From the NCBI RefSeq assembly GCF_004010195.1, contig NC_057719.1, positions 35,074,264-35,138,263 of the forward strand: a stretch of 64,000 nucleotides of DNA. The letters run 5' to 3'. The position numbers and the translations under genes were made by a program. Below are positions 1-63,071 of this stretch, in pieces; positions within the stretch are counted from its first letter, which is position 1; the number at the start of each line of letters is the position of its first letter. The stretch is from Chiloscyllium plagiosum. Lineage: Eukaryota. The notes under the pieces are model-generated. The model ran no database searches. It worked only from the letters and a program-made list of their open reading frames with translations, and was not told where the DNA came from.

Positions 1-278
1 AAGTTTGTCCAGCAGGGTAAGATAAAAGGTAGGGAGGAGGGACTTGGGGGAGGGGCGTCGGAAATGTGATAGGTCAAGGTGAGGAATCTTCTTCCCCTGA
101 CCTCTCCTCCAACCCCACTCTGACCTATCACCCTCACCTTAACCTCCTTCCACCTATCGCATTTCCAATGCCCCTCCCCCAAGTCCCTCCTCCCTACCTT
201 TTATCTTAGCCTGCTGGACAAACTTTCCTCATTCCTGAAGAAGGGCTTATGCCCGAAACATCGATTCTCCTGCTCCTT
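1..278 (+). mobile_element. Penelope-like element terminus with inverted 5' duplication (truncated by window edge)
   Basis: 1-74 is the near reverse complement of about 152-225; ends in a hammerhead-like motif of the same family as 24456-24554. Confidence 0.7.
231..266 (+). ncRNA. Minimal hammerhead ribozyme-like motif (decayed)
   Basis: ATTC-CTGAAGA-A-GGGC(TTAT)GCCC-GAA-ACAT-C-GATT; ACAT is ACGT after CpG decay. Confidence 0.6.
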
Positions 279-522
279 CAGATAATGGACACCTGCATTA
301 CATAGATTTCATAAATGAGTGACATCTGCCTCAGAGTTTTTCTAGAAAGCTGGAGTAGGTGTAGAAGGAGGAGTAAACAATAGATATGCCCGAAACATCG
401 ATTCTCCTGCTCCTTCAGATAATGGACACCTGCATTACATAGATTTCATAAATGAGTGACATCTGCCTCAGAGTTTTTCTAGAAAGCTGGAGTAGGTGTA
501 GAAGGAGGAGTAAACAATAGAT
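249..522. repeat. 137-bp tandem duplication (249-385, 386-522)
   Basis: Two adjacent copies that read as identical. Confidence 0.93.
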
Positions 523-1510
523 GAAGATGGTGCTGAGAAAGAGAGAGAACAGCAGCTGGACAAAGGAATGGGTAATGCTCAGCCTGGAAGAATCAATAGC
601 TGCTAATGAGGACAATTAATAGCTGACAAGTTGATGGTGGAAGCAGCCTGTGTGATCACAAGGCCTGGTATGCGGGAGTTGGGCGAAGGACTTGGAAGAG
701 GTACTGAGGCCCTACAATTATTGAACTCTATACTGAGTCCTGAAGATTGCTGAAAATGAGATACTGTTTTTCCAGCTTGTGCTGAGCACTGCAGCAAGCC
801 TGAGACAGACATGTTGACCAGGGGACACAGTAGTATGTTGAAGGCACCAGGCACATCTTCCAGGTGAAGCAGCAATTTACCTGCACTTTGCACAATCTGT
901 CTACTGTGCTCACTGCTCACAATGTGGTCCCCTCTACATTGGGGAAACGAAATTCAGACTGGGTAATGACTTTGCAGAACAGCTACAATCTGTCTGCAAA
1001 AAATGTCTCTGAACTTCCAGTTGTCTACCACTTCAATACACCACCATGTTCCCTGGACATCTGTCTCAGTTTTGCTGTAATGCTCCAGCAAAGCTCATTT
1101 TCTGCTTGGGGGCTCTGCAGCCTTTGGACACAATTTAGGAGTAATATTATGCCCCTAGAGCCTTCTTCCATGTTGTTTACTCACCCCCAGTTACCAGCCC
1201 GCCATCACAAATGCAGCTACTGTAACCAACCCACTGTCAACTACAAATGGTTCCCATGAGCAACTACTAATTCTTCCAGGCTGACCATTACTCATTTCTT
1301 TGTCTGCCCAATTGCTGTTCCCTCTCTTTGAGCTTCATCTTCACCTGTTGTTTATTCCTCCCTCCTTCCCACCTTAAACATATATAACCAACCTTTTCCT
1401 ATCTACAATCAATTCTGAGTAAGGGTTACAGGATCCAAAACCTTAATTTTGCTTTCTTTCCACCGATGCTGCCAGAACTGCTGAGTTCCTCCAGCAATTT
1501 ATGTTTCTTC
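523..1510 (+). mobile_element. Penelope-like element 3' part (GIY-YIG endonuclease remnant) with inverted upstream segment
   Basis: 864-980 reads, with a frameshift, KQQFTCTLHNL/YCAHCSQCGPLYIGETKFRLG; degenerate CTGAGTAAGG..AAAAC motif near 1415-1441; 523-830 resembles the same family in reverse. Confidence 0.75.
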
Positions 1511-1756
1511 TTAATCAGAACTACTATTGTACTCTAACTCATTTAAATGGATTATCAAACTCTCAAGTTACAGACTTATTAGAAGGAACTTATTCCATAT
1601 TCAAATAATAAATATTAAGCTCTTTTAGAATAATGAACGTGTTCCTATCTCTTGGTCAAAAGGCCTGGGTTCAATTCACAGCTGCTGTAGAGATGGGTCA
1701 TGATGTGTCTGACCAGGTCAATTAAAAATATCTATAACAAATATCACACAACCCAC

Positions 1757-1845
1757 CAATATACTTTTCTTGCCTTCTGAATTGTAATAACAGTTTGAAC
1801 TTCTTTTAATGTTCTTTTTGTCTTTTTCTCCGCTGATTTAAATGC
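1757..1845 (-). CDS. NEMF: NEMF coding exon 16, [29 protein letters not shown](W)
   Basis: 89 bp, ttttag/GTGGGT; next exon (FEKFLWF...) not found in 1-1756, so the gene continues beyond the window. Confidence 0.96.
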
Positions 1846-2647
1846 CTAAAAGGAAATTAATACATTAATAAAGATTTTTGTTGAAAGAAAACCAATTTAA
1901 CATAGTCATTTTAAGTCAAAAGTGCAAGTAGAGAACATAAGGAAATCAAAAATAAATTTTAAAACAATGAACGTTTCATATTAGAATCCCAAAAAGGAAA
2001 TTAATGAGACAGACAAGATTCTGGGTAACGTCTCTTTTAGATACTCCACAAACATAGAAGCATTTGCTAAAATCAAGAGGTTATCTCAGAATATCCTAAC
2101 ATTTAAAAAAGGAGCGAGATGTTTATACAACAATTAGGGGTAAATAAATGATATCCACTTGAGGCCAAAATTAAATTCTCTGGTACTAATATGCTACATA
2201 AATCAGAAATAAAAATAAAATCTTTTTCAACCCTAATTTGATTTCTTATTCACAGATGCTGGCATTTGAAGACACCTTCCTACCATACAAACAAATCAGA
2301 ACTGATCTTTTCATTTGGCTACTTGCACAAACCACATGGCCAACCCAAAATTGGTAGAGGCCTGGGAATGAATCGCCAGCACCCAAACAAAAAGGTTCAG
2401 GCCCTGACAAAAATGAAGAGAATTACAGGTGTTAAATATAACTTTCTAAAATCAAGATAGAAATTTGTTTGCATTCTCTGCTTCCTGCTTTTTATACTGC
2501 TGCTCTAGACACAATCAGGGAGAAATTAATTAGAAGTGACAGGACACACACATATACCAAATCCCAGGAAAGCAGCATCACAGACCACCTTTCTTCATTA
2601 ATGATATCAGTGCTATCACTTCTCTTTCAATGTGGAATATTTCTTAC

Positions 2648-2711
2648 TTTTTCTGCAGCTTCAACTGTCTTCTGTTCCTTCTTTGCTGCATGCCTTTTGT
2701 GATCATAATAT
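2648..2711 (-). CDS. NEMF: NEMF coding exon 15, YYDHKRHAAKKEQKTVEAAEK
   Basis: 64 bp, gtgcag/GTAAGA. Confidence 0.96.
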
Positions 2712-3284
2712 CTGCACCAGAATATCATTTGAAACATAAAACTAGTGTTAACATATTCAACATCTGTTAACCAGCAAGAAGTGAACATCAAAACAACAGA
2801 TATTACAACAATATGATGCTATTTTCTTTTTTTACTACCGGATTGTTTTTTTATAACTATATTCTTCTATTATTATAATTACATTAACCCTACATACAGC
2901 TACGATGAAATCTGTTTTTCAAACTACAATTTCGTAGCCCCAGCAGTTCAATGAAACAGTATGCAAAACAGGCTGACAGTGCACTATTTTTGCTGCATCA
3001 GTCTTAGCTTGAAAACTGAAGTCGTGAGCAATTCAGAATAACCATTACGATTACAGTCCAGGTTAATAAATCATTCACACATCTTGGTAATGAATTTGAC
3101 CATTAGTGTCAGAATCCCAACCAAGTTATACTAACTGATAAAAAAATATTAACCTTTTTTTGAAAATGTTGGGAAAATGGGAACTTTGAGGCAGAAGAGA
3201 AATTGACAGAAAATTGAAGTTTCTTGTATATTTAATGTACATTGCGACACTTCAGAAAGAGTAAAATCAAGCTTCACACTTCAG

Positions 3285-3560
3285 AAGGCAATGACACAAT
3301 AGTAATGTAAATGGACTAGTAACTGAGAGCATCAGGCTTATCTACTGGGAACATGAAGTTTTGAATCCCACCACGGCATACGGTGAATTATGATTTCAAT
3401 GTTTAAAAATCAGTGATATCAGAAAAAGCACGTTTTTGTTGCCAAAACCACATCTGATTCACTCATGCCCTTACCTGTTCTGGCCTAATCAGACCCACAG
3501 CAATGTGAGTGGGTCTTAAATGCTTTCTGAAATGACCTGGCAAGTCTTTCAAGTGTATCA
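3285..3560 (+). mobile_element. Degenerate tRNA-derived Deu-type SINE
   Basis: Shares GGACTAGTAA, AATCCCACCACGGCA and CAGACCCACAGCAATGTG blocks with the 5383, 14598 and 60305 copies. Confidence 0.6.
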
Positions 3561-4787
3561 AACTGTTATAAAGTCTAAGGAAAGAAATTAAATAAGACTG
3601 ACCAACAGGCATTTACTGAGGCACCAGAAATAACAATAGCTAACCAAACTCTGCCTATCTAGCAAAGGCCTTCCTTACTATATCTGGGGCTTATGTCAAA
3701 ATTGAGAGAACTGTCACACAAACAAGTTGAGCTACAGCTTGACATTGTCTACAAGATGTGATTTTGTGACGGTGACAATGTTCCAACCATCACAATCCTT
3801 TGATAATGATGCATATAATTAGCAAGTCATACCAACCAGAGGTGCCAGGCACAAAAGTATACAAACAGGATGGAGTTAGCTGGAATTCTTCAACATTGCC
3901 TCAGGGCCCCATCAGATCAAACATGGATAAGGAATCATCCTACTAATTAACATCAGCCTCTACCTCCCACCCCTTCATGCTGATGATTCATGACTCTATA
4001 CCTACCACACGGCATTATTTGAATGAAGCACCAAGGGTGACAAGGGCTCAAAAAGTAATGTGTGGAATCTTGAGTCTGCATCCCCAACATCAACGCAGTA
4101 GAACCACTGCTACCTGAGCTGGCCAAGCCTAAAGGGCAATGCTGCTGGACTGAGTATGTCTCCTCATCAACCTTCCTTGGCAAATGCATCTGTCCATAAC
4201 AGTATAACTGGTAATGACCACCACATAATCATTGTGGAGACAAAATACCATTGTCACATTTTGAATATGTTTCAACGTATTTTGTGACTCTATAAATGTG
4301 CTAAGTGTGACACACTTTGGGAGATCTAGGAATTCAAGACTGACCATCCATTAGGCAGTGAGCAACCAAAAGCAGCGGAATCATGGCCAGAAGCAAACCA
4401 ATGGCCTGACATGTTTCCAATGCTACCATTACCTTCCAGATGGGAGATCAACTTTAATTCAATGAAGAATGCAGAAAGGCAAACTAAGTATATCCAAAAA
4501 TGAGGTGATAACCTAATGAAGATGTGGCACAGGTCCACTTGTTTGTCAACTGGTAGGGCAGCATGCAATAGACAGAACTGAGCCATTCCACATAAAAAAA
4601 AATCAAATGTAAGCTCTGTAGTTTTGCCACATCCAATTATGAACGGTGATAAGTTAAGTAAATAACAGGAGGCGGCTCCACAATTTTCCCCTTTCCCAAT
4701 TATTAGGAGCCCAGCTCATCAATACAATAGGTAAGGCTAAAATATTTGCCTCCAACATCCCCACCAACCAGATGCGTTAAGTAGATC

Positions 4788-5170
4788 AGAAACAAAAACT
4801 GAAGTTGCTGGAAAAGCTCAGGTCTGGCAGCATTTGTGAAGAGAAATCAAAGTTAACGTTTTGCATTTGGCAAACCTTCCTCAGAACTAATGGTAGCTAG
4901 GAAATGTAGGTTTATATGCAGAAGATATGGTGGGGGGAGGGAGCAAGGAGTGTGGATAGAGCCCAAAAAAAAAGAACATTTGGACAAAGGAACCAATAAC
5001 GATCTGGCTGGGAGAATGAATAGCTGTTAATGGAGACTGTTGGTGGCTAACGATAGGTAGTGTATAATGGCAGACTATGTAATAAAAAGGCCTAGTGTAT
5101 AGGATAGGGGGCTAAGACATGGAAGATTTCAGATCCTAAAATTATTGAACTCGATATCGAGTCCATAGGG
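4788..5170 (-). mobile_element. Penelope-like element 3' terminal fragment
   Basis: Minus strand ends CTGAGGAAGG...AAAACGTTAAC...CTTTTCCAGCAAC; similar to 523-740 and 1200-1510. Confidence 0.65.
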
Positions 5171-5382
5171 CTAAGCAGTTCATCCATTTTGGCCTCCTTC
5201 AGAGGTTGCAGAGCAGCACAGGTGCCAGTCACCAACCAATTTGATTGACTCTGTGACATCATGTTATTCTACACAAGTTATTGGACACTGAAAACATTCC
5301 GGCAGCAACACTGAAGACCTGAGTTCTGGAACAAGTCACACCTCAAACAAAAATGTTCAGTACAGCTATAACACTGCTAACT

Positions 5383-5698
5383 GGGAGGTAGTGGTAAAGT
5401 AGAAATATCAGTGGACTAGTAATCCAGATGAATTTTCTGGGAACGTGGGTTCAAATCCCAACATGGCAGATGGTGAAATTTTAATTCAGTAGAATCTGGA
5501 ATTAAAAAGCTAGTTTAATGGTGAACATGTAAGCAATGTCGATTGTCGTAAAAACCCATCTAGTTCATGTGTGTCTTTTAGGAAAGGAAATCTGTCTTCC
5601 TTAGCTGATCTTGCTTAACAATTGACTGCAGACCTATGGCAATGTGGTTAATCCATAATTGCTCTCTGGGCAATTAGGGATGCGGAATAAAAAAAAAG
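5383..5698 (+). mobile_element. tRNA-derived Deu-type SINE (SacSINE1-like)
   Basis: B-box GGTTCAAATCCC at about 5448, conserved central block, tail GGGCAATTAGGGATG and an A-run. Confidence 0.75.
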
Positions 5699-6224
5699 CA
5701 CCTGACCTCATTACTGCCTTGGTACAAACATGGACAAAACAGCTGACCTCCTGAACCACGGTGAGAGTGACTATGTTGAAATCAAGGTAGCACATAAATG
5801 ACATCAAGGAACCCGAACAAAACTAGAGCCAATGAGAGTCAGGGGAAAACTCTCTACTGGTTGGACTCATACCTAGTACAAATAGAGTCATAGAGATGTA
5901 CATTGGTGGTTGTTGGAAGTCAATCATCTCAATCCCAAGATATTTATGCAGGATCTCCACTGGGTGGTGCTCTAGGGCCAAGTATCCATCATCAAGGACC
6001 TTCCCTCCACCACAAGGTCAGAAATAAATGGTTACAGATCATTGCACAATATTCAACACTATTCATGACTCCTCAGATACTAAAGCAATCCATGTCCAAT
6101 TGCAGTAATATGTGGACAACATCCAAGCTTGGGCTGACAAGTTGCAAGTAACATCAAGTGACACAAATGTCAGGCAGTAATAATGTCTGAGAAGAAAGAA
6201 TTCAACCACTGCTCCTTGCAACTC

Positions 6225-7335
6225 ATTTATTTATTCATGAGTTATGGGCTGCACTGGTTGGGCTAGCATTTATTGCCCATCCCTAGTTGCCATTGGAGGT
6301 GGTGGTGGTGAGCTGCCTTCTTGAAATGCCACGGCCCGTTTGCTAAATTACATCCACAATGCTGTTAAGAAGGAAGTTCCAGGATTTTGATCCAGTGACA
6401 GTAAAGGATCAGCAATATTTCCGAATCAGGATAAGGGGGTTCGTGCTGATTGTTTTTCTTCTGCATGACCTTGGAGGTCCGTGCGCAGCAATGACTACTG
6501 GAACCAAGCGACCTATGGACAGTTGCAGTGGCTGCTCACATGTGCAACTTAGAGGGAACATTGATCAGGACAGCTTGCAGCTCGGAGGGCAAGTTGCAGG
6601 TGGTGGTGTTCCCATGTATCTGCTGCCCTTGCCTTTCCTAATAGTAAGTTGGTTGTAGGTTGGAAGGTGCTACCTAAGGACCCTTGGAGAATTTCTGCAG
6701 TACATCTTGTAAATAGTATACACTGTTGCTACTGAGCATCAGTGGTAGAGGGAGTGGATGTTTGTGAATGTGCTCCCAATCAAGTGGGCTGTTTTGATCA
6801 AGCTCATGACAAGTTTTGAGTGTTATTGAAGCTTCACTCGAGACAAATGGAGAGTATTCCACCAGACTCCTGACTTGAGGCTTGTAGATAATGGTCAGGC
6901 TTTGGGAAATCAGGAAGTGAATTGTCTCTCACTGCACTATTCCTAGTCTCTGACCTGCTCATGTAGCCACATTATTTAGCTCCTAAGTCCAGTTCAGTTT
7001 CCGGTTAATTGTAATCTCTAGGATGTTAATAGTGGGGATTCAGTGAAGGTAATGCCACAGAATGTCAAAAGGTGATGGCTAGATTCTCCCTGTTGGAGAT
7101 TAATGTTGCCTGACACCTACGTGAATGTTACTTGCCACTTGTCAGCCCAAACCTGGATAATGTCCAGGTCTTGCTGCATTTAGACATGGATGGTTTCAGC
7201 ATTTGAGAAGTCACTACCAGTGCTGAACATCATATAGTCATCAGCAAACATCCTCATTTCTAACCTTATGATGGAAGGAAGGTCACAGGTGAAGCAGCTG
7301 TATATGGTTGGGCCTAGGTCACTACCCTGAAGGGT
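6225..7335 (-). mobile_element. L2/CR1-clade LINE 3' part
   Basis: ORF 7180..7443 contains QGSDLGP...MFADD; 3' tail GGATGGGCAATAAATGCT is shared with the SINEs; appears to continue at 10225-10735. Confidence 0.75.
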
Positions 7336-7344
7336 AGAGCAGGA

Positions 7345-10222
7345 ACAGGATTGGTTATTGCAGAAACCCGGATTTAGATGTTTCTGTAAGAACAGAGAAA
7401 ATGGTAAAAGAGGGGTAGCACGGCACTGTTGCAGAAAGGACATTTGAGGACTCGTCTACTGAGGTAATATGGGCTGAGATTCGAAACAGGAAAGACGAAG
7501 TTACCCTGTTGAGGGTTTTCTATAGGCTTCCAAATAGTTCCAGAGAGGTAGAGGATAGGATAGCAAAGATGATCCTCAATAGGAGTGAGTGTGACAGGGC
7601 AGTTGTTATGGGGGATTTTAACTTTCCAAATATTAACTGGGAATAGTACAGCTCAAGTACTTTAAATGGGTCAGTTTTTATCCAGTGTGGGCAGGAGGGT
7701 TTCTTGACATAGTATGTAAAACAGGCCAAAAAAGGGCGAGGCCACGTTAGATTTGGTACTGGGTAATGCACCCAGCCAGGTGTTAGATTTGGAGGTAGGT
7801 GAGCACTTTGGTGATAGTGACCATAATTCGGTTGTGTTTACTTTAGTGATGGAAAGGGATAGGTATATACTGCAGGGCAAAAGATATAGCTGGGGGAAAG
7901 GCAATTACAATGCGATTAGGCAAGATTTTGGATGCATGGGTTGGGGAAGGAAAATGTAGGGGATGGACACAGTTGAAATGTGGAGCTTACTCAAGGATCA
8001 GCTACTGCATGTCCTTGATAGGTATGTACCGGTCAGGCAGGAAGGAAGTTGTTGAGAGTGGGAGCCGTGGTTTACTAAGGAAGTTTAATCTCTTGTCAAG
8101 AGGAAGAATAAGGCTCATGTTAGGATGAGATGTGATGGCTCAGTTAGGATGCTTGAGAGTTAAAGGTTAGCCAGGAAAGACCTAAAAACAGAGCTAAGGT
8201 GAGCCTGGAGGGGACATGAGAAGTCATAGAGATGTACAGCACAGAAACAGACCCTTCGGTCCAATCCATCCATACCGACCAGATATCCCAACCCAATCTA
8301 GTCTCACTTGCCAGCACACGGCCCATGTCCCTCCAAACCCTTCCTATTCATATATCTTTCCAGATGCCTTTTAAATGTTGCAATCATACTAGCCTCCATC
8401 ACTTCCTCTGGCAGCTCATTCCATATATGTATCACCCTCTGTGAAAAAGTTGCCCCTTAGGTCTCTTTTATATCTTTCCCATCTCACCCTAAACCTATGC
8501 CCTCTAGTTCTGGACTCCCCCATCCCAGGGAAAAGACTTAGTCTGTTTATCCTATCCATGCCCCTCATGATCTTATAAATCTCTATAAGGACACCCCTCA
8601 GCCTCCAACACTCCAGGGAAAACAGCCCCAGCCTGTTCAGCCTTTTCCAATAGCTCAAATCCTTCAACCCTGGCAACATCCTTGTAAATCTTTTCTGATT
8701 CTTTTCAAATTTCACAACATCTTTCCAATAGGAAGGAGACCAGAATTGCATGCAATATTCCAACAGTGGCCTGACCAATGTCCTGTACAGCCACTCAGTA
8801 CTCTGACCAATAAAGGAAAGCAAACCAAACACCTTCTTCATTATTCTATCTACCTGCAACTCCACTTTCAAGGAGTTATGAACCGGTACTCCAAAGTCTC
8901 TTGGCGATAGAAGTCGTTGGTGGATAGGATCAAGGAAAACCCTAAGACTTTCTGTAGGTAAATTAGGAATAAAAGAATGATTTAGAGTAAAATTAGGTCC
9001 AAACAAGCATAGCAGTGGGAAGTTGCACATGAAGTCGGGAGAGATAGGGAAAGTACTAAATGAATACTTTTCGTCAGTATGCACACTAGAAAAAGACAAT
9101 ATGGTCGAGGAGAATATGGAGATACAGGCTACTAGACTAGATGGAATTGAGATGCAAAAGGAGGAGGTGTTAGCAATTCTGGCAAGTGTAAAAAATAGAT
9201 AAGTCCCCTGGGCCAGATGGGATTTATCCTAGGATTTTCTGGGAAGCCATGGAGGAGATTGCGGAGCCTTTTCTTTGATCTTTATGTCGTCATTGTCTAC
9301 AGGAATAGTGCCAGAAGACTGGAGGATAGCAAATGCTGTTCCCTTGTTCAAGAAGGGGAAAAGAGACAACCCTGGAAATTATAGACCTTTGAGCCTAACT
9401 TTGGTTGTGGGTAAAATGTTGGAAAGGGTTATAAGAGATAGGATTTCCAATCATCTAGAAAGGAATAAGTTGATTAGGGATAGTCAACACTGTTTTGTGA
9501 AGGGTAGATCGTGCCTCATAAACCTGATTTTGTTCTTTGAGAAGGTGACCAAACAGATGGAGGAGGGTAAAGCAGTTGATGTGATGTATATGTATTTCAG
9601 TAAGGTGTTTGATAAGGTAGGCTATTGCACAAAATACAGAGGCATGGGATTATGGGTGATTTAGCAGTTTGGATCAGAAATTGACGAGCTGAAAGAAGAC
9701 AGAGGATGGTGGTTGATGGGAAACATTCATCCTGGAGTTCAGTTACTGGTGGGGTACCACAAGGATCTATTTTGGTCCACTGTTATTCATCATTCTTATA
9801 AATGACCAGGATGAGTGCAGAGAAGGATGGATTAATAAATTTGCGGATAACACCAAGACTGGTAGAGTTGCGGATAGTGACGAAGGATGTTGTAGGTTAC
9901 AGACAGACACAGATAAGCTGCAGAGCTGGGCTGAGAGGTTGCAAATGGAGTTTAATCCAGAAAAGTGTGAGGTGATTCACTTTGGAAGGAGTAACAGGAA
10001 TGCAGAGTACTGGGTTAATTGTAAGATTCTTGGTCGTGTAGATGAGCAGAGAGATCTCAGTGTCCAGGTACATAGATCCATGAAAGTTAACACCCAGGTT
10101 GATAGGGTTGTTAAGAAGGCATACAGAGTGTTAGCTTTTATTGGTAGAGGGATTAAGTTTTGGAACCATGAGATCATGCTGCATTTGGAGTATTGCATAC
10201 AGTTCTGGTCACCGCATTATAG
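7345..10222 (+). mobile_element. CR1 LINE (HER1-like) ORF2 remnant, endonuclease plus RT
   Basis: [50 protein letters not shown] motifs with stops and frameshifts. Confidence 0.92.
8226..8908 (-). mobile_element. CR1 3' fragment nested antisense in the 7345-10222 CR1
   Basis: ORF 8416..9099 ([23 protein letters not shown]); CTCTATGACT tail; AGAAGTC direct repeat at 8219-8225 and 8909-8915. Confidence 0.92.
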
Positions 10223-10224
10223 GA

Positions 10225-10735
10225 ACCACAAACATCTTTCTTTGTGCTAGGCATAACTCCAACCAGCAAATGGATTTCCCCTGACTCCCACTTACCTCTG
10301 TTTTGCTCCAACTCTTTGATGCCACACTTTGTCAACTGTGGCTTTGATCTCATGGGCTCTCTCTTTCACCTCACATCTGAAATTCAGCTCCTGTGTCCAT
10401 GTTTGAACCAAAGCTGTAATGAGGTCAGGAACCGAGTGCCCCTGACATAACACAAAGAGAGCATCACTGAACTGGTTACTGCTCAGCCAATGATGCTTGA
10501 AAGCACAATTGTCGACACCTTTCATCACCTAATGCTGATCGAGAGTAGGCTAATAGTGCAGTGATTGGCTAGGTCAGATTTGTCCTGCTTTGTGTGTATC
10601 GAACATACCTGGGCAATTTTCCACATTGGTGGGTAAATGCCAGTGTTGTATTGTACTGGTACAGATTTGCTAGGAGTGCAGCAAACTCTGAAGTACACGT
10701 CCTCTGTAGTATTGCCAGAATGCCAAGGACAACAG
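10225..10735 (-). mobile_element. L2/CR1-clade LINE RT fragment
   Basis: ORFs 10525..10743 (YPPMWKIAQV..ISLLS) and 10292..10528 (PDLITALVQTW..DKVWH). Confidence 0.78.
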
Positions 10736-25184: not shown

Positions 25185-25237
25185 CTGAACAAAAATAGAT
25201 TTTACAATGTCAGTACAAAAAATTAAAAATTAGAATT

Positions 25238-50952: not shown

Positions 50953-53075
50953 AGAGTCATAAGAAATGTACAGCATGGCAACAGACCCTTTGATCCCACT
51001 CGTCCAAGCCGCCCAGATATCCCATCCCAATCTAGTCCCACCTGCCAGCATATGGCCTATATCCCCCCAAACCCTTCCTAATCATTTGCCTTTTAAATAT
51101 TGCAATTATACTAGCTGCCACCACTTCCTCTGGCAGCCCATTCCACACACGCACCACCCTCTGCATGAACAAGTTGCCCCTTAGGTCTCTTTTATGTATT
51201 TCCCCTTCTCACCCTTAACCTATGCCCTCTACTTCTGGATTCCCCCATCCCAGTGAAGAGGCTTTGTCTACTTACCTTATCCATGCCCCTCATAATTTTA
51301 TAAACCTCTATAAAGGTCACCCCTCAGCCTCCGATTCTCCAGGGAAAATCTGTCCCTATGGGTCAAATCCTCCAACCCTGACAACATCCTTGTCAATCTT
51401 TTCTGAACCCTTTCAAGTTTCACAACATCCTTCCGATAGGAAGGAGACCAAAAGTGTACGCAATATTCCAAAGGTGGCCTAACCAATGTCCTGTATAGCT
51501 GCAAACCTCCCAACTCCTGTACTCAATACTCTGACCAATAAAGGAAAGCATACCGAACACCTTCTTCACTGTCCTATCTACCTGTGACTCCACTTTCAAG
51601 GAGCTATGAACCTGCACTCCAAGGTCTCTTTGGACAACAACACTCCCGAGGACCTTACGATTAAGTGTATAAGTACTGCCCTGATTTGCCTTTCCAAAAT
51701 TTATCTAAATTAAACTCCATCTGCCACTCGTCAACCCATTTGCTCATCTGATCCAGATCCTGTTGTAATCTGAGGTAACCTTCTTCGCTGTCCACTACAT
51801 CTCCAATTTTGGTGTCATCTGCAAACTTACTACCTATACCTCCTATGTTCATATCCAAATCATTTATAAAAATGACAAAAAGTAGTGGACCCAGCACCAA
51901 GCCTTGTCGCACTCCACTGGTCACAGGCCTCCAGTCTGAAAAAATCCCTCCATCACCACCCTCTGTCTTCTACCTTTGAGCCAGTTCTGTATCCAAATGG
52001 TGAGTTCTCCCTGTATTCATGAAACGTAACCTTGCTAACCAGTCTCCCATGGGGAGCCTTGTCGAATGCCTTACTGAAGTCCATATAGGTCACGTCCACC
52101 ATTCTGCCCTCAGCAATCCTCTTTGTTACTTCTTCAAAAAACTCAAATCAAGACACGATTTCTCATGCACAAAGCCATGTTGACTATTCCTAATCAGTCC
52201 TTGCCTTTCCAAATACATGTACATCCTGTCCCTCCAAGGACTTGCCCACCACCGACATCTGGCTTGTCCTTACCACCTTTCTTAAATACTGGCACCATGT
52301 TAGCTAACCTCCAGTCTTCTGGCAAGTCATCAGTGACTATCAATGATACCAATATCTCAACAAGAGGCCCAGCAATCACTTCCCTAGCTTCCCACAGAGT
52401 AATAGGTACACCTGATCAGGTCCTGCATTTCAAGATATCCAGCACTTCCTCCTCTGTAATCTGGACATTTTTCAAGATGTCACCATCTATTTCCCTACAT
52501 TCTATATCTTCCATGTCCTTTTCCACAGTAAACACTGATGCAAAATACTCGTTTTGTACCTCCCCCATTTCCTGCGGCTCCACACAAAAGCCGCCTTGTT
52601 GATCTTTGAGGAATCTTATTTCTTCCTAGTTACCTTTTTGTCCTTAATGTATTTGTAAAAACCTTTTGGATTCTCCTTAACCCTATTTGCCAAAACTATC
52701 TCATGTCCCCTTTTTGCCCTCCTGACTTCCCTCTTAAGTATACTCCTACTGACTTTTTACTTTTCTAAGGATTCACTCAATCTATCCTGTCTATACCTGG
52801 CATATACTTCCCCCTTTTTCTTAACCAAACCCTCGATTTCTTTAGTCATCTAACTTTCCCTAGAACTACCAGCCTTTCCTTTCACCCAGATGGAATTTAC
52901 TATCTTTGGACTCTCGTTATTTCATTTCTGAAGGCTTTCCATTTTCCAGCCAACTCTCTACCTGCGAACATCTATCTCCAATCAGCTTGAGGGTTCTTGC
53001 CTGATACTGTCAAAATTAGCCTTCCTCCAATTTAGAGCTTCAACTTTGAGGCCTAGTCGATCCTTTTCCATCTAA
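50953..53075 (-). mobile_element. Younger CR1 ORF2/3' fragment
   Basis: ORFs 51661..51924 (GPLLFVIFINDLD, KFADDTK), 51298..51513, 52194..52379. Confidence 0.92.
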
Positions 53076-53984
53076 TTGATCAGGTCTTGGGGATTTATCT
53101 ACCTTTATGCATTTTAAGACCTCCAGCACATCCTCTGCTGAAATGTGTACTCTCTTGAAGACATCATCATCACTATTTATTTACCCAAGTTCCCGAACTC
53201 CCATGTCTTTCAAGATGGTAAATACTAAAACAAAATATTAATTTAGGGTCTCACCCATCTATTGTCGTTCCGTACATAGATGGCCTCGATCTTTAAAGGG
53301 GTCCTATTCTCTGCCTAATTACTCTTTTGCCCTTAATACACGTGTAGAATCTCTGCTTCCTGTATACTCCTCAATGCTTCCTACTGCCACTCCAACTAAT
53401 CCATGTGCTCTGAGAGGAGCTGTAGCCTGACACATTTCATTCAGACATAGTCACCAAGGAAACTCAACTGCTCCCTCATCTCCCACATCTGACAGGAGGA
53501 ACATGTCACTCCACTCACTGCCATCTCTGCCCCTTTAACGACTAGCATACTTGGCGGGGAGGGGAATGATTGGAATGTTACCTTATTGCTGTTCTCAACA
53601 AAGCCCCGTATTCATCTTGACCCACTCGCAGATGTAGCCAGCAGCTCATCTCAAAAATAGTCAGAACAAGACACGGCAATGCCTTCCCTCTCTCACTTGG
53701 CTTAACTCCACACTAACTTAATTCTCAGTTGTCAACTATGAAGGCCAACACAAAATATTGACATCTGAGCCATTTCCTTATTCCTTGTCATAAATTCTCC
53801 TTTTAAGCACTAATGGGACTCGCATTTTCTTCCGTTACAGTTTTCATTTCTTTCCTACTTCTACAAAGTCTTATAATCTATTTTCACTTTAATATTAATT
53901 AATGTTATACTTTCTCATAATATTGATTATTTGGTCTTTACTTGCTAATTTATAAAACTGTCCTAGTCCTCAAACTTACCATTA

Positions 53985-54325
53985 GGAACACAAACAGAAT
54001 TAGGTCTTTAAGCCCTTGAGCCTGTTCCACCATTCAATGAGATCATGGCTGATCTGTAGCCTAATTCCATATACCTGACTTTGGCCTATATGCCTTAATA
54101 CTGTTGCTTCACAAAGGGATCTAATTCAGATTTAAAACTGACGATTGATTCAGCATCCACTGCCATTTGTGGAAAAACTTCCAAACATTTTCCACCCTTT
54201 GTTTATAGAAGTGCTTCCTAACATCTCTCCTGAACAGTCTGGCCCTGATTCTCAGATCATGCCCCCTACTTCCAGAATCGCAAACCTGCAGAAATAGTTT
54301 ATCTATTCCGTCTTTTCCTGTTGAA
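53985..54325 (-). mobile_element. CR1 3' end
   Basis: GATCAGCCATGATCTCATTGAATGG tail motif and FYKQRVENVWK-like remnant on minus strand. Confidence 0.75.
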
Positions 54326-54938
54326 GATTTCTTGGCAATATTATAAAGCTCTTTCCTAATAATATTTTAAGTTCTTTAGTTATCTACATATGGAATACTT
54401 CCCTGTGGACTTTTTAATTGAAATATCCATTTTTAAGTCATATGAAATATTTTCTTAAGTGTTTACCATCACTAATCCACAATCATACCTTTTGAGCAAG
54501 TACAAAAGCTTTTATATTCATATTTAATTCATTCATACTCCTCTTTCCAGAATGCTCATCTTGAAGAAGTTCTGCTCTTCTCTCGGACAAAAGTTCTTGC
54601 TTTTCTCTTTTCCATTCTTTCTTTCAGTCTTTCAACTTACTTAAAATCTGTTACAACAAAACCTTTTTCCAATTCTATTGAGACTGCAACATTAACTCTG
54701 ATTTGACCTCCACATATGCTGCCTGACCTGCTTCTTTTCCAGCATTTTCTGATTTTTAAAATTCTATTTCCAGCACCTGCAGTACTTTGTTTTATATTGG
54801 CAATACTTGAATACTTACTTTTCCTGATTTTATTCCACAACATTGAGAATATTATAATGCAATTAGTATATTGACATCTCAGAGATTTCTTGATTTTGAT
54901 CATTTATCTACTGTACTTATTTTTTTAAAAAAACTCAC

Positions 54939-55006
54939 TAAGGTGGGGATTGAGTACTTTCTTTATTTGTTCTCCTTTTGGTGTATTAGCCAAGACCTCG
55001 GTCAAC
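54939..55006 (-). CDS. NEMF: NEMF coding exon 6, (R)LTEVLANTPKGEQIKKVLNPHL
   Basis: 68 bp, ctatag/GTGAGT; phase 2 in, phase 1 out fits both neighbours; not in the ORF track, read manually. Confidence 0.94.
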
Positions 55007-57230
55007 CTATAGAACAATTAGAAATTTCAACAATTACAAAGAATGGCAACTTTAATTACTTCAATATATAGATGCATTAATCAGAAATTGAAAATTATGT
55101 TATGCAGGAATTTTCTACTGCATTAAATCTGGTTAACTCAGTTCCTGAGATCAAAAGAAAGGTCCCCTCTTTCATTTTGTGTTCACTTACCGCCTCAGAA
55201 GTGGTCTTATTGAAATAAAATGTAAATGGGATTGATTTCAGAAAGTTTTCCTTGGAGGTTTGTTTTGCTGTGGAATGCGCTTCTTGCTACAGCACAAAGA
55301 AATGTACAAAGAAATATATGCCAAGGTTGCCACCAGTCCTCTCAGATTCAAGCTGTCAATAACTTTATCGCACTTCTGGAAAAGTAATCACTACCTTTTC
55401 AGGACAGGCAAACAGGATCACTGGAGTGAGGTATCTATTGGCTCATGTTAGATAACAACCAAAAAGAGATGCTAGGCCATTTGTCATTACCACTCCTGTA
55501 GTCCTGCAGCATCAGAATACCTTCCTCTGATTCTGGATGAATTTCTGTTCTAAAGGGTTTATCTTTGCTAGCATCATTTCAAGCCTCAGCAGTCAACAAA
55601 ATACTGAAATACAACTGAATTAAGTTCTATTCGAGATGTGCTTTGACCAACTTTTGACTGGGAACAAGGAAGGAAATTCAATCCAACACCATTTAGCTAA
55701 TGACAATCTGAAATGCACCTGAAAGAAATGCTGAATATATCATCCATTAATATTTAAATAAGCATGAAAAGGACACTACTGCACTTTTGTCATCTATCAC
55801 CAAGTCGACAACAATACAAACTACTGAAACAAATAATAAATAAGTGCATGAAAATTTGTTGAGGTGTTCATTCTATAATTTATGAGGGGTACAGCCAGTC
55901 ATTTTCAACACAAAAGATGAAGAAGTTTAAAATCAATAGAAACAGTATCACAGACTTTAAATTTACAAAAGTGGGACAGATATTTGCTTTACTCATCTGG
56001 GGCAGTATTCTTACAAGGTCAAAACTATGGGATTATTTAAAAGAGGCTAACTTTAAATAATTTGGGCCTTCCAACTGTGGTTTTAGATAGATGATAAGGT
56101 GCTCGGTCAAACATATGCCCATTGTACACCGGATTGAAAATCTTCTTGTAACTTTGTTTGTTGTGCTCGGTTTCTTTCCAATATTAAACGAGATATTTAG
56201 TCAGCGTTTTTTTTAAAAGAAATTCCTGATGCAAATCTCCAGTATCATGTACCAATATGCAGCTATATAAATCCTTTCGTAATGCCATAAAATGTTATTT
56301 AATGCACATTCATAACAAGAATCTGAAACAACCAACAAAATAAAAATTGCCAGACAATGATTTCAGAATTGATAGTCAACTGTTTGGTCAAAGAGAGAGA
56401 GGTGCACCTTAAATGAGGAGAAAAGAGGAAGAGCAGAGAGAAGAGGAAAAGTGGATTGAAAAGGAATTGGATAGTCGAATTTTGTACCGCTGTGTCAGAA
56501 GTATGAGCAAAGGTTTTTAAAAGGTGGAAAATGGGATGTTGACCAGGAGAGCATCAGAATAATCAAAATCTAGATATCGCATTGGTGTGAATAAGGGTTT
56601 CAATAGCAGATGATCAAGACAAGGTTAAAGGTTAAGGTGGAAACAGGCAATCTTGGTGATGGTGAATACGTATTGGAAGGTCATTACAAGGGTCAAACAT
56701 AACTGCATGGACAGGGAACAGGCAGGTTGTAAGAAATATATGAAAAATAAAGACAGAGGAAGGTTTAAGGTGGTAATTCTAGAACTCAAGACCCAGGCAG
56801 TTGAAGGCACAACCACCATCGATGGAGCAAGTAAAATCAGAGATATGCAAGAAGCCAGAGTTGGAGCAATGCAAAGATCTCAAATAATTCTAGGGGCTGA
56901 AAAGATTACACAGAAGAGAACAATAGTTCATTATTTACAAACTGATAATCAATCTGGACAATCCCAAGTTGTTTCAACTTTATGCAAAGCACTTAAATGG
57001 GCAGGGAAAATGTGGTTTAATGTTGAACACCTGATTTCCTAAACAATAATAAAATTTAGGTATTGAAGATCTTAACAAATTTAATTGAAAATTAATTTCA
57101 ATTGAAAAGTAAAGTATCACTCAAGGCAAAGTATAACACTTCATCCACCAGAAACATTATAAAGTTAAAGGCAATGTCATAAATATATTTAGATTTCATT
57201 AATTTCAAATGATTCGTATGATGACAGTAC

Positions 57231-57379
57231 CTCTCTAAAGATAGTGGAGGCTCTGGATGTTTAGCACGATCAACAGGATATCGTTCACGAACAGCAAACT
57301 TCACATCTTGCACCTCATCAGTACGGAAACGCAGGAGATTTAGAATTGTATACTCATTGTCAGTGAGGATTATGTTACC
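57231..57379 (-). CDS. NEMF: NEMF coding exon 5, [49 protein letters not shown](R)
   Basis: 149 bp, ttgcag/GTACTG; within ORF 57098..57391. Confidence 0.97.
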
Positions 57380-58099
57380 CTGCAAATACACAGGTAGAAA
57401 ATATTAAAATCAAAAATCCTGGCAGAAACTAAGAATCACAAGCAGATTTAAATTTCATGAAAATATCAAGTACACGCACCCATATTTGCATTTTTACAGC
57501 TTCAATTTAATTATATGACATGAAGAACGGAGAAGTTAATGTCCTTTGTACCTATCAGCATTAAGGAAGCGGATATCAACTAACTGGAAAAAGGTGAAGA
57601 TTCATGTAGAAAAAACATCACAAAGACAGGTCCATTTGGACAAAGAAGTGTAAACTGATTTTATTGCCACACAAAGTTCGTCCATTCCATCTAGTCTACC
57701 TCAGCTCGTCTCAGGTATTCATCTGTTTTCTTCTGAAAGTAGCCTCGTCATTTGTTTTAAGCACTAACTTGAAAAAGAATTTTCTTATTTCCCTATTGAA
57801 CTGAGTAGGAATAATGTGTATTTAACTGCCTCTAATTTTGCATTCTCCCACAAGTGGAAAAATTGTCTCCACATCTACCCTGTCCAACCTATAATTTTAA
57901 ATACTTCTACCAGGTCTTGCCAAATCTCTTTTTCAAATAAATAAAACCTATGTTTCCTTTTTCTCCCCAGAGTAAAAAAAGGTAAAAAGAAAGAAGGAAA
58001 GGAAAAAAAGGAAGGGAAACAGAAAAAGGGGAAGGAAAAAGGATGGAAAATGACAGACAAAGGGAAGGAAAGGACATACATACATACACAGCCAACAAA

Positions 58100-59765
58100 G
58101 CCAAAATCCCACAAATGAAAAGAAAATTAACCATCCTTTTCCATGTTACCAGAAGCTCTATCCTGAATAATTGTTTCTAGAATTTTCCCCACACTGATGT
58201 GAACAGGTTGGTCTGTAATTGCTAGGCTTATCATTGCAACCTTTTTTGAACAAGAGTGATGTTTGCAATTTTCCAGTCTTCTGGCACCCCTCCGGAATCG
58301 AAGGACAACCAAAAGGTTAAAGCCAGGGGCCCTGCAATTTCCAGTCATTTGCTTCAATATCCTTGGATGAATCTCATTCAATCCCAGTGCTTTGTCAAAT
58401 TTAAGTGCTAAAAGTCTATCCAACACTTCTTCCTTAGCAATTTTAGACTGTTCCAGTCACAGTGTTTCTATTTCTGTCACCATAGCCTTGCTATTACTTA
58501 CTTCATTGGTAAAGTTAGGTGCAACAATTTAATTTAATCAGCCATGACTCTTGCCTCCATGCGTAAATTCCCATTTTGGTTCCTAATCAGATCTATTCCT
58601 CTTTTTACTATTTAGACTTCAAGATTTTAGACTTTTCTCAGAATTCCTCCTTGCCTTTTTAACATTTCTTTCATGTCCCCTCTGAACCTTCTATATTTCT
58701 CTTGGTTCTCAATTCTGTTTTCTACCTGGCTTGCCAAAGCTTACTTTTCTTTTCTTTACCTCAATTTATACCTTCTTTGTGTGATGCAAGTGTAATGATT
58801 TATATAGATTTTAATATCATTCGTTTTTGAATTTTGAATGAATGTTTTATGGCAGTTTATGGGTGTCTTAATAAGTAAGTAGTTTTGTAGCCATGGTGAT
58901 TTCTCTAAAATAGTTTGGAGGAGACATCTTAAAGAACTAAGCGGTTTTTGTTTACATCGGGAGAGTTTACAAGTGACATACAATCTATTGTAATATATCA
59001 GGTTCTCCGTTTGAAGATTCTGACTATGATTTAAGCTTCAGGTGAACCACCAATACCTTAGAAAGAAACCTTTCAGTGTTATTTTCAGTTTAGGGAATTC
59101 TGAAGGGTTCTTGGAAGATGAATGCATAAAGCATTGCTCCCGATAAAGGGAGAAGATAACTTAGATCTCTAAAACAAAAAAACAAACACCTCAGCAAGGG
59201 ATTTTGTTACAAATCCAGACCAAAGAATTGGGTAAAACCCTAAAGGGATTATCTGTTGCTGAGAAAATTGAAACTCAGGTGTACAAAGGCCCAAGGAAGA
59301 GGCTGTCAGATTCTCCAGACTGAGAATTGAAGTCAAAAGTTAAAAAAGCTTTCAGAGGTAATAGAGAAGGAGATTCTCTCTCATGTGAGCATTTGGGATC
59401 AGTGAAGAAGTGCTTTTTTGCAATTAATGGGAATATATTTTGAAATAATTTGTTTTGAAATCTTTAAACATGGCAGACATTAAATAGTTTGGTTTCTTCT
59501 AGTTTATCTTCATTTCTTTTGCAAGATGAATTTTTTGCATAAATGACTGTCAGCAATATTGTGTTTATAATTTATAGAGAGACACTCTCATTAAAACCAA
59601 ATGAAACTGCTCTATGAAGCCAGATTTCAGCCAGAGATGAGAGTTGGCCAGAATAACATCAGCTAGAATCATAACAATTGTCATCCAGGGAGTTCTGGGT
59701 TTGTTTGTCCTACCTTTCCCTTTTGAGGAAATATACCATGACTGTTCTTAACATTGCTCTTTAAA
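58100..59765 (-). mobile_element. CR1 ORF2 fragment split by an LTR
   Basis: ORF 58127..58426 (DKALGLNEIHPRILK, VGKILETII). Confidence 0.75.
58780..59676 (+). mobile_element. Probable solo LTR
   Basis: TGTGA...TAACA ends; flanks TTTG/ATTG (3/4); CR1 sequence resumes across it. Confidence 0.58.
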
Positions 59766-60304
59766 GTGCAGGGGGCTCCATCTATAAGAATGACCCCAAC
59801 CTTGCCATTTCGATAAACCATCTTACTTCCAGGCCCACTACAATGTTCCAACAAAACTCAATGCAATACAGAATACCACCTCATCTTTCCACTTTAGCAC
59901 CTTACAGACTCACACTCAATATTAAGTTCAACAACTTCAAAGCATGACCTCTATCCTCCATTTGATTACAACCACCCCATCTTGTTAAGTTTTGCTCTCA
60001 GCTGAGCAGACCCATTTTCTTGTTTTCACAACTATAAATGTACCTATTTTATATCTCCTTTACTATCCTACTATACACTAAAACAACAATGTAAATGCAC
60101 CATTTTTGTTCCTTAGCTCTAGCCTAATTGATCCTTGAATCCTTCAACACAGCCTCATTCTTCAGCGCTGCAAGGTACTCCTTATAATATATTAGAGGCC
60201 ACACATTCCACTCAAGGCAAAGCAGTGCAGCTTAGCCAACTTTATTTTCCTTACATTTACTTTATCTGCTTTGAATTGCTTATAATACTTTATTGTACTG
60301 CGAA

Positions 60305-60657
60305 AGACAGTGGTCAAGTTGTATTATCCCTAGACTATTAATCCAGAGATAAGGTAATGTTTGGGAACCTGATTCAAGGTCATCTGCCATGGCAGATTGT
60401 GGAATTTGAATTGAATAAGAATCTGGAAATACGAGTCTAACGATGACTATGAAACCATTGTCAATTGCCAGAAAAATACCCATCTGGTTCACTAATGTCC
60501 GTTAGGAAAGGAAACTGCCATTCTTGCCTGATCTGTACTATGTGTGACTCCAGACCCACAGCAACGGTTGCCTCTTAAATGCCCCATGGATAATTAGGAA
60601 TGGGCAATAAATGCTGGCCTAACCAGCAATGCCCACATCTTGTGAATAAAAAAAAAA
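60305..60657 (+). mobile_element. Deu-type SINE
   Basis: Colinear with 14598-14945; ends in an A-run. Confidence 0.78.
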
Positions 60658-61644
60658 GTGATCCTCACTTCCCTGGTGTTTTCAGTTAGCTACTGAAAAC
60701 TGAAATTTACAGCCATTTAATTTTCTATTTACAGCCTTTTAAAATCAGTCCCTAATAAATTTACTACCAACAGTTAACTTAAATGAAAACGTGTAGAGCA
60801 CTTCCTCCCCACACTTCACCAAACTCCTCACTCAGTACACTACTTCCTACAGAAACCTCTATAACACCTCTTTCCCGCTCTGCACCTAATTCGCAGATAT
60901 ACTCACTCAGCCCCCATCTCAATCAGGCAAAACCTCCTTCACACTGACCATATGGTGGATCAGTTATCCATATCTCCTCTGAACAATTAATGTCTGAACA
61001 ATTAATGAACTGAGTAGAGCTGTATTATATAGCCATTTCGGCAGACGGGGAGTTGAGGCTATACAAACAATTGTACGCACAAAAAAGGTTTCAGCCATCT
61101 GATACGGAAATAGTTAACCTATTAACCTGGACTTCATTTGTACCAAGTTGCTAGATAATGTGCTAACCACTGTACTAGTTATTTCTCAGACTGATGAACT
61201 AATGTCCCAATTAAAAAAAAGCAAAACAAAACAAATTGGCAAAGACAGTGAAGAGTTGTAGAGAATCCCTGCACAGTACCTACTGAGATATACTGAAATA
61301 TTGTGCATTATTTCCAAATTCCAAAAATCTTAAAAGATAGAGAATGCACAGATGAAAGAATTGTAGTTTAGAGTATTTTATTCTTCAAATGAGAATGTAT
61401 ATATTCAAATTAAATAAAGAACTACTGGTGTACAATAAAATTCTCTTTGGTCTGACTGCACAACCAATGGCAGTATTATTGACAGAATCCAGAGATTTAT
61501 TCCAAGAAACATGGAACATAAAAGAATGAGGAAGAATGCCCACATTTCAGATGCCATGCAAAAAATACTATTAAATGTTGTCAACTTTGTACATTAATGA
61601 ACCTGTTCAAAACATGCAGACGAAAGTGAATTTGAGTGACTTAC

Positions 61645-61770
61645 TCGGTCGTATAGTTCAACAATCACGTGGTAAGCTGCTTGATCTGAGCCAAATTGAA
61701 AATCAACTATCCTATCAACACCAAGTTGCTTAATGTGGATCAATCTTCGTGATTTTAAATGTTTACGGCA
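61645..61770 (-). CDS. NEMF: NEMF coding exon 4, [42 protein letters not shown]
   Basis: 126 bp, ttacag/GTAAGT, phase 0-0; within ORF 61594..61785; contains conserved [11 protein letters not shown]. Confidence 0.97.
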
Positions 61771-62699
61771 CTGTAACCAAAACAAAAATCACAGTTTTAG
61801 CAAAGATTCTCTCTCAATCAAACAGTGACAACAAAGTGAGACGGACAGGAGAAAGGGGATGTTTTATGACTGAATCAGGACTAGAGGAAACAGGAAGATC
61901 CGCCATATTTCAACTTAGTTACAAAATAGACACAGCATATCTAACATAGATTCAGTGACCAGGGAGTTTTTTTTAAAGCTAAAGCTATTTTAGCAAACAG
62001 TGTAGAAGCAATTAAAAAAGGAAGCCAATCAATAATGCCTGTGCCAACTCTCTGTAAGAGCAAATTTACCACACACAACTGCGTTCTTTTTCTGTTGCGC
62101 TGCATACTCTCTTCAGGAGCTAATCTAATGCCTTTCTGAATTTTAGAACTGAATTAGCCTCCACCACATTCCCAAGCATTGCAGTCTAGCTCCATTGGTT
62201 AGATAAGTACTTGTTGCCATTGCTTCTTTTGCCATTCACCTTAAATTGGTGTCTTGTAGTTGTGAAGCTTTCTGCCAAGGGGAATTAATAAAATTACATA
62301 GAACAAACCATTCTTGCAGTTAAAAAGCACTGTTTCGAAGTCTCTCCCAAAACAATCATTTATCACAACAACAGTAAAATTAATTCATGTGACTGGTTCT
62401 AATACTTTGTGTTTCCCGTTTCACAGATGTTATCATTTTAAGGCTCATATCCACAAAGTTAATGAATATAGAAATTCTTTTTGGGAAAAAAAACTCAATT
62501 CAAACTTTTACTAAATTACCACCTGTACATTCAATTATTGCTTGGTAGATAGTACAGACTTGAACAAGATGCAAAATGCAATTATATATTAAGGAAACAG
62601 ATGTTCAATATACTGTGCAATTGTCAAAGCTTACTAAAAATGTGTTAAAATTATAAAATTATTCTAAGAATTCTGCAATGGGTGACGGTCACTTTCTAC

Positions 62700-62802
62700 C
62701 TTCATTGCAAAGCCTGAAGGCATCATATTCTTTGGCCATTCAAACTCAGTTGTGTGGATCCGGATGCCAGATTCAACCAAAAGTACAGCTTTTGATTCTG
62801 GC
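62700..62802 (-). CDS. NEMF: NEMF coding exon (exon 3 by human analogy), [34 protein letters not shown]
   Basis: 103 bp between ttttgcag acceptor and GTAGAA donor; translation matches recalled NEMF N-terminal NFACT-N sequence ([27 protein letters not shown]). Confidence 0.96.
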
Positions 62803-62996
62803 CTGCAAAATGAAAAAAAGACAGAATGGAAACAAGCTAATTATACAATGTGGGAGTCTGTTAATATGGGGCACAGTAAACTAACTTTGCAATTACATTA
62901 CATACTGCAAACTTTGTCATTGCATTATAATGACAAACACATACGAATTAAAAATCACACAACACCAGGTCATAGTTCAACAGGTTTAACTGGAAG

Positions 62997-63031
62997 CACT
63001 AGCTTTCGGAGCGCTGCGCCTTCATCAGGTG
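62997..63031 (-). ncRNA. Minimal hammerhead motif (left arm), AGCU palindrome, CUA triplet
   Basis: CAC-CTGATGA-A-GGCGC(AGC)GCTCC-GAA-AGCT-A-GTG. Confidence 0.68.
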
Positions 63032-63036
63032 ACAAC

Positions 63037-63071
63037 CACCTGAAGAAGGAGCAGCACTCCAAAAGCTAGTG
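63037..63071 (+). ncRNA. Minimal hammerhead motif (right arm), G12 mutated
   Basis: CAC-CTGAAGA-A-GGAGC(AGC)ACTCC-AAA-AGCT-A-GTG. Confidence 0.55.

Follow-up and report, generated by a model that had tools for sequence, protein, structure and literature searches.

We examined a 64,000-nucleotide stretch of the genome of Chiloscyllium plagiosum (contig NC_057719.1, positions 35,074,264 to 35,138,263; 'the window' denotes the whole of this stretch), in which hammerhead ribozyme motifs are scattered through introns of the gene NEMF. We consider it highly probable that these motifs are 5′-truncated, mostly decayed end-pieces of Penelope-like elements (PLEs) that carry the known minimal hammerhead ribozyme (min-HHR), with self-cutting in the germ line likely at low efficiency and no predicted role in NEMF. 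The window by itself is ordinary, because the motif class has been known since 2014. What goes beyond that class, and would carry the interest in place of the window copies, is indirect evidence of cleavage in vivo together with a mapped anatomy of the pseudo-long terminal repeat (pLTR) of these elements. About evenly balanced, in our judgement, is the more specific proposal that germ-line cleavage is recorded by U6 RNA fused to three unrelated families at their scissile bonds, that the hammerhead forms a self-decapping off-switch in the first 35-45 nt of the messenger RNA (mRNA), and that run-off copying of uncut capped RNA has yielded stubs by the hundreds of thousands, dispersing working poly(A) sites among host genes. 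The founding paper on PLE hammerheads (Cervera & De la Pena 2014, PMC4209133) had no evidence that they cut in vivo, and the one PLE that has been reconstituted did not depend on cutting to insert. The genome is a very large natural sample of the cut site (U6 joins), of the probable RNA start (a pile-up of 5′ ends) and of the RNA end (the poly(A) site).

The preliminary description of the window listed seven clear motifs and four traces, and all eleven are at the places named, each with a hammerhead-like core. C3 of the core lies at 235+, 24546-, 39904-, 41370-, 44213+, 63028- and 63040+ in the seven. A strict descriptor, which asks for CUGANGA with 0-1 extra base after it, at least 4 bp in stem II, GAAA-NN-U-H and at least 2 bp in stem I, passes three of them, 235+, 24546- and 44213+, compared with a mean of 0.013 matches and a maximum of 1 in 300 dinucleotide shuffles of the window. 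The other four 'clear' motifs are truncated or mutated, with C3 changed to A in 39904-, a 5′ truncation at G5 that removes C3 and U4 in 41370-, a mismatch in stem II of 63028- and G12 changed to A in 63040+. Only 24546- is fully intact, because the stem III tetramers of the other two passing motifs have decayed (to ACAT and ATGT). An Rfam scan of the window returned no hammerhead family at E<=10; its top matches were microRNA models aligned to fold-back arms. Judged by an Rfam family match with a stable stem III and a contact between loops I and II, the window contains no canonical type I hammerhead.

Genome-wide, the same architecture is abundant. We applied a looser descriptor to 96 evenly spaced 10-kb stretches of large contigs (960 kb) and obtained 70 matches, against 1 in the reversed sequence. 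Features first noticed in the window held in this sample: exactly one extra base follows CUGANGA in 69 of the 70, the tetramer is an exact palindrome in 50 and ACAT or ATGT in 14 more, and stem II stays paired. The density of about 75 matches per Mb extrapolates to ~2.6x10^5 in the genome and gives about five per 64 kb, so the motif density of the window is that of the background. Exact patterns, which give minimum numbers, found 49,325 copies of family A, 17,348 of family C and, with a strict 34-nt pattern, 379 of family B; reversed controls gave 0.

The division into three families, A, B and C, stands for the clear motifs, but the traces come from two further ones. Three of them (1415+, 4884- and 33805-) are members of family D, which is older than A and akin to it in the 3′ part; that at 47553+ belongs to an old fifth family, E, with 166 exact 19-mers in the genome, in whose relatives the extra base is missing, stem II has 2 bp and the stem III palindrome is longer, AAGCTT. 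One unpaired base between A9 and G10.1, followed by a G10.1-C11.1 pair, is common to families A-D and F and absent from E. Family F, which has no intact motif inside the window, has a core that reads UUGACAA, with U3-A8 in place of the C3-G8 pair, and its 3′ pLTR is related to those of A and D (L254-L273, for example C1:1906011-1906041). We counted 1,264 exact copies of this core and 107 in which position 3 is some other base, and A8 is kept in 97 of the 100 listed. In the commonest A subfamilies (A1 and A2) stem I is only 2 bp long and is followed by a U-U mismatch; in A3 it has 4 bp. In several family A copies (for example C1:12915131), short-homology deletions (such as GAT...GAT and GAA...GAA) have removed either stem II or the hammerhead in its entirety. 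Small PLE-associated hammerhead variants with a diminished stem III, described in 2017 by Lunse, Weinberg & Breaker, reportedly cleave as dimers.

Sequence comparison supports the view that the window motifs are min-HHRs of PLEs, a class already published. The extra base is not peculiar to sharks: a min-HHR consensus for metazoan PLE pLTRs was given in 2014 (PMC4209133), and its common form (a short stem I, CUGANGA plus an extra base, G10.1-C11.1, and GAAA-palindrome-UH) already includes that base as well as the palindrome. Fig. S3 of that paper shows an Acropora Neptune motif that family A resembles, and the U3-A8 core variant that it describes in Schistosoma is found here, as family F, in a vertebrate. 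The 40 species covered there include no chondrichthyan, and its ~9,000 copies in Xenopus compare with the ~2.6x10^5 extrapolated here using a different descriptor. One chondrichthyan was included in a screen for tandem retrozymes posted as a preprint in 2026 (bioRxiv 10.64898/2026.07.22.740005). Our literature search, a comparison that extended to neither the work of Lunse et al. 2017 nor the species list of the preprint, found no paper on shark PLE hammerheads; nor did it find one on U6-Penelope chimeras.

The proposed connection to PLE termini was confirmed by the longer copies, which encode a reverse transcriptase (RT; Pfam RVT_1) and a GIY-YIG endonuclease. At 15/15 loci for family B, 13/15 for C and 12/15 for A, the GIY-YIG domain is followed by a motif of the same family on the same strand. 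Families D and F are linked to PLEs only through the similarity of their pLTRs to that of A; the flanks examined contained no PLE open reading frame (ORF) for D, E or F, and no link between E and PLEs was found. The copies share with C-terminal-endonuclease PLEs (Craig et al. 2021, PMC8557442) the order of RT then GIY-YIG, 5′ truncation, an inverted arm and a one-sided tail. A cysteine linker, CX2-5CxxC, marks Neptune and is also carried by Nematis PLEs (PMC8557442). Between RT and the C-terminal GIY-YIG we found this linker in A (CHRRNCKTC) and C (CHGGRCKTC) and none in B. By this motif, A and C would be Neptune-type PLEs, and B, with a C-terminal GIY-YIG that lacks the cysteine linker and an ORF that opens in the hammerhead, would be of Penelope/Poseidon type.

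The indirect evidence for cleavage comes from eight U6-PLE chimeras outside the window, six with family A, one with C and one with subfamily B3 (L345-L349, L351, L352, L353). In each, the complete U6 3′ end (five T's) is fused directly to its partner and the two have been copied together. A search for the U6 3′ end with 0-30 bases allowed before the family A pLTR gave 7 matches, six of them joined at +28 (relative to C3), the first base after the predicted cut; the seventh was unrelated (control 1). The six have U6 pieces of 25-100 nt and six different downstream sequences. If joins followed the ordinary distribution of 5′ ends (at most ~0.11 at that base), six of six at the cut would arise with a chance of ~2x10^-6. 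The family C join is at +29, again exactly the first base after the predicted cut. The B3 join agrees with the cut to within a stretch of T's and can be read clearly only on the inverted arm, and the search that yielded it also gave 2 unrelated matches (control 1). In L347 and L353 the join is present on the inverted arm too. A census of all 26 exact U6 3′ ends in the genome found 6 joined to a PLE pLTR, with 0 off the predicted cut. The U6-family A pattern could also reach families D and F but detected no U6 join in either.

Hammerhead cleavage leaves a 5′-OH end. RtcB joins the cyclic phosphate of U6 to such ends, and the U6/LINE-1 chimeras that it makes have the same full U6 3′ end, five U's, fused to retroelement RNA (Moldovan et al. 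2019, PMC6789731). In those chimeras the L1 partners are variably truncated, whereas the PLE partner here is joined at one fixed site. RtcB ligation and template switching onto U6 would both require that an RNA begin at the cut, and it is likely that the joins record real cleavage in living cells. In vivo, Frangieh et al. 2024 (PMC11167929) observed no RNA ending at the cut of PAc, the Poseidon PLE of Anolis carolinensis; here, the U6 chimeras mark that position. All six family A joins are on A1/A2-type ends, despite the 2-bp stem I. Separately, 9/26 of the exact U6 3′ ends, tallied by eye, join the 5′ end of an abundant repeat resembling a short interspersed element (SINE; L360-L362, L365, L367, L373, L374, L376, L379). 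We take this repeat to be a transfer RNA-derived SINE.

Copies aligned on the core suggest how the pLTR is arranged. We counted 5′ ends with inverted arms masked and with true-upstream references. Among A and C copies, 104/225 begin between -15 and +5 of C3 and not at the cut, and the 5′-end hazard in this interval is 0.03-0.07 per nt, compared with 0.003-0.011 on both sides. Families A, C and F have TATA-like boxes some 35 to 40 nt ahead of C3 (-35 to -40), and B has one at -47/-50; the 5′-end peaks of C (-8) and F (-4) fall ~30 nt past them. The Penelope element of D. virilis has a TATA-less internal promoter (PMC2377424). An extra G is present on 6/7 family C copies that start at -8, a result picked after looking. 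At the other end, copies terminate at two sites ~35 nt apart, comparable to PAc, in which two internal RT starts give a 30-40-bp tail (PMC11167929).

We next turned to RNA, using ~2% of the reads of one single-cell poly(A) run with the same species label. Family C reads over the motif are ~9:1 sense, and 833 poly(A) reads end at +57..+60, 12-15 nt past ATTAAA. Because depth is flat across the predicted cut (1296 and 1213 on either side), much family C RNA must be uncut. Its poly(A) site lies ~30 nt beyond the cut and ahead of the inferred RT starts, unlike the arrangement in PAc (PMC11167929). Family A showed no strand bias in the same run. Family C stubs number in the tens of thousands, and those whose poly(A) signal works could truncate host transcripts.

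In family B the hammerhead overlaps the protein. The reading frame of a near full-length copy, opened by the AUG of the hammerhead (A9, the extra U and G10.1), enters a conserved PLE N-terminus, 38-40% identical to full-length flatworm proteins. The ORF of PAc likewise starts at hammerhead stem II, and its cut lies 26 nt after the start codon (PMC11167929); the predicted cut of family B is 28 nt into the ORF. The family B protein (L128:1795-3192) has its nearest non-shark named relatives in flukes and tapeworms, at 46-52% identity; the best 120 of 281 matches include none named from a bony fish or a tetrapod. The Clonorchis motif in Fig. S3 of PMC4209133 is similar to the hammerhead of B3. Horizontal transfer of family B is possible from these comparisons.

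Together these results suggest the following scheme. Along the pLTR, a TATA-like box would be followed by the point where transcription begins, slightly upstream of stem I, then by the hammerhead, the poly(A) site (in family C) and RT start sites, which we place at ~+90 and ~+125. When an uncut RNA is primed within its 5′ pLTR, the RT would soon reach the 5′ terminus and run off, producing the abundant 100-140-bp stubs; uncut RNA is also the main template in PAc (PMC11167929), as it would be here. A minority of RNAs would be cut as a dimer formed through the palindromic tetramer, probably with help from the element's protein (PMC4209133, PMC11167929). The cut would remove the cap and leader, and in family B the start codon too, leaving a 5′-OH end that RtcB-type ligation could join to U6. 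The run-off part of this scheme does not cover family B, because that family shows no pile-up of 5′ ends.

Several observations weigh against parts of this scheme. Ordinary copies show at most a weak excess of starts at the cut, about 6-11 per 100 against 3-5 at neighbouring positions by an eye tally. There is no excess of cap-derived G overall (23/79 compared with 21.8 expected), and family B shows no pile-up of 5′ ends (8/52 within 25 nt) despite a clear TATA box. No transcription start was seen in the reads, which come from one sample and ~2% of a run in which short cut products would be under-sampled. In PAc, cleavage was not required for insertion in vitro (PMC11167929). Predicted folding favours neither the hammerhead fold nor the stem III dimer over alternatives: in cofolding of two copies the stem III dimer was not the minimum-energy form, and folding z-scores of single motifs are weak for families A and C. 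The clade names are drawn from the linker motif and not from a tree, and the covariation described next is mixed and comes from family B copies that share kinship.

The covariation check proposed in the preliminary description was run on 38 family B copies not selected by stem sequence, taken from 65 distinct listed copies plus the window's two, with pattern-selected copies excluded. Its outcome was divided: 3/5 measures exceeded all shuffles and 2/5 did not. The stem I pair is CG in 21 copies, UA in 8 and GC in 6, and the stem II pair is UA in 24, CG in 7 and UG in 7. The score was 0.244, compared with 0.155 for shuffles (0/500) and at most 0.081 for slid partners. Stem compensation was seen between subfamilies and not among inserted copies, and the U3-A8 core of family F is a further compensatory change. 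In inserted family A copies, core letters were changed at 63/870 positions (7.2%) and flanking letters at 151/1914 (7.9%; p=0.59); these copies decay neutrally. Since stems covary between subfamilies and inserted A copies decay neutrally, selection acted on active lineages and not on inserted copies.

Among other explanations, the one that survives best is that the hammerhead-like sequence is kept for a non-catalytic job (as promoter or initiator, in protein binding or in coding for an N-terminus) and never cuts in vivo, with the U6 joins arising from a protein nuclease or an RT switch point that coincides with the cut. We regard this as unlikely. It would accommodate the passage of much family C RNA across the site uncut and the origin of most copies from uncut templates, as well as the doubling of the family B motif as coding sequence; published work adds low activity in vitro (PMC4209133) and, for PAc, insertion unaffected by core mutants with no reads ending at the cut (PMC11167929). 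It has difficulty with the placing of the joins, which hit the scissile bond in three families despite their differing sequence near the cut, and with the C3-G8 to U3-A8 swap, which preserves a pair known from the catalytic core (PMC4209133). The PAc hammerhead, moreover, cuts with protein present and shows C3/G8 rescue (PMC11167929). Catalysis at low efficiency, in active elements, remains our preferred account.

That the host has adopted these ribozymes to regulate NEMF pre-mRNA is highly unlikely. All the motifs lie in NEMF introns, one fully intact copy (24546-) is in the sense orientation, and the sense arm of the family C stub lacks a poly(A) signal, which could reflect selection on host transcripts. 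However, the number of motifs is that of the genomic background, orientation across the NEMF region shows no bias (14 sense, 18 antisense) and family A copies, once inserted, change at the neutral rate. One would have to go ~52 kb through the region to reach the next intact A motif found in sense orientation, a distance over which dimers would not form easily. Because there is one intact sense copy and no orientation bias, an effect on NEMF is unlikely.

We find it very improbable that the short copies are non-autonomous retrozymes spread through circular RNA and not truncated PLE ends. Most copies are indeed only 100-140 bp long, and animal retrozymes derive from PLE pLTRs (bioRxiv 10.64898/2026.07.22.740005). 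Yet the window copies are single or head-to-head, with no head-to-tail arrays (no genome-wide tandem search was run), copies begin ahead of the core and not at the cut, longer copies extend into PLE ORFs, and the two 3′ ends ~35 nt apart fit the PLE 'tail'. Chance resemblance to a hammerhead, for which the lack of an Rfam match and the weak z-scores in A and C might speak, has a negligible probability and is refuted by the shuffle (3 matches against a mean of 0.013), reversed-sequence (70 against 1) and copy-number (tens of thousands of exact copies, reversed controls 0) controls.

Within the window, the intact family A1 stub (~99 nt) occupies 24452..24550 on the minus strand, begins 4 nt before C3 (24546) and is flanked by a 14-bp target duplication at 24442 and 24555. 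It is sense to NEMF, in the intron after coding exon 11; a sequence look-up for 24000-25300 listed no RNA data set. The other A1 motif, at 231..266 on the plus strand (C3 at 235, predicted cut after 262), has an intact core and a tetramer decayed to ACAT, and is antisense to NEMF. It closes the forward arm (~118-276) of a PLE stub with fold-back layout; the inverted arm of this stub, 1-74, leaves the window. A perfect 137-nt tandem duplication (248-384 and 385-521) begins inside this hammerhead and replaces the 3′ part of the stub; it could be a recent event or an assembly artefact.

The segment 39835-44311 is one family B fold-back insertion with a decayed ORF, interrupted by a fragment of a long interspersed nuclear element (LINE). 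The inverted arm, 39835..40888 on the minus strand, has a decayed RT-thumb/GIY-YIG frame and a pLTR with the hammerhead at 39867-39908 (C3 to A at 39904). The forward arm, 42527..44311 on the plus strand, has a decayed RT and GIY-YIG ORF (~42527-44140), a TATA-like box at 44166, the hammerhead at 44209-44250 with tetramer ATGT, and a 3′ tail; its AUG at 44219-44221 consists of A9, the extra U and G10.1. Between the two arms, nested in the LINE fragment, is a family A2 stub (41240..41368, minus strand) truncated at G5 of the core, without C3/U4.

The family C insertion at 62948..63160 is a fold-back stub on both strands, with a 12-bp target duplication at 62939 and 63162. Its short arm (62948-63032, minus) is sense to NEMF and has the stem II mismatch and a poly(A) signal changed from ATTAAA to GTTAAA; the long arm (63032-63160, plus) has G12 changed to A, an intact ATTAAA and the tail. 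ATTAAA or AATAAA is present in 32/38 sampled family C copies, and the altered signal of the window's sense arm is a single case. Decayed stubs of family D, the older A-related pLTR family, lie at 1413..1523 (plus), 4792..4888 (minus) and, as a fold-back on both strands with its core at 33805-, at 33709..33881; a decayed family E copy lies at 47538..47592 (plus). A 3′ piece of a family A2 pLTR without hammerhead is at 12026..12093 (minus), with similar pieces at 17497-17590 (plus), 31904-31985 (minus) and 54693-54757 (plus).

The host gene was defined by mapping a shark NEMF protein. NEMF runs on the minus strand over 1756..62801, from coding exon 3 (62801-62700) to exon 16 (1845-1756); exons 1-2 are past the right end of the window and those after 16 past the left. 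Two exon translations match NEMF in the PDB. Nearly all exons are 95-100% identical to a protein labelled Hemiscyllium ocellatum, which upholds the earlier guess of a shark host, and with coding exons 3-16 in place every motif is intronic, as had been described. The remaining sequence contains many decayed LINE fragments (40930-42520, 8200-10250, 12200-12800, 16500-17300, 26100-27100, 46400-47000 and 50900-52600), the first of which splits the family B insertion. By their motifs, we presume these fragments to be of the CR1 type.

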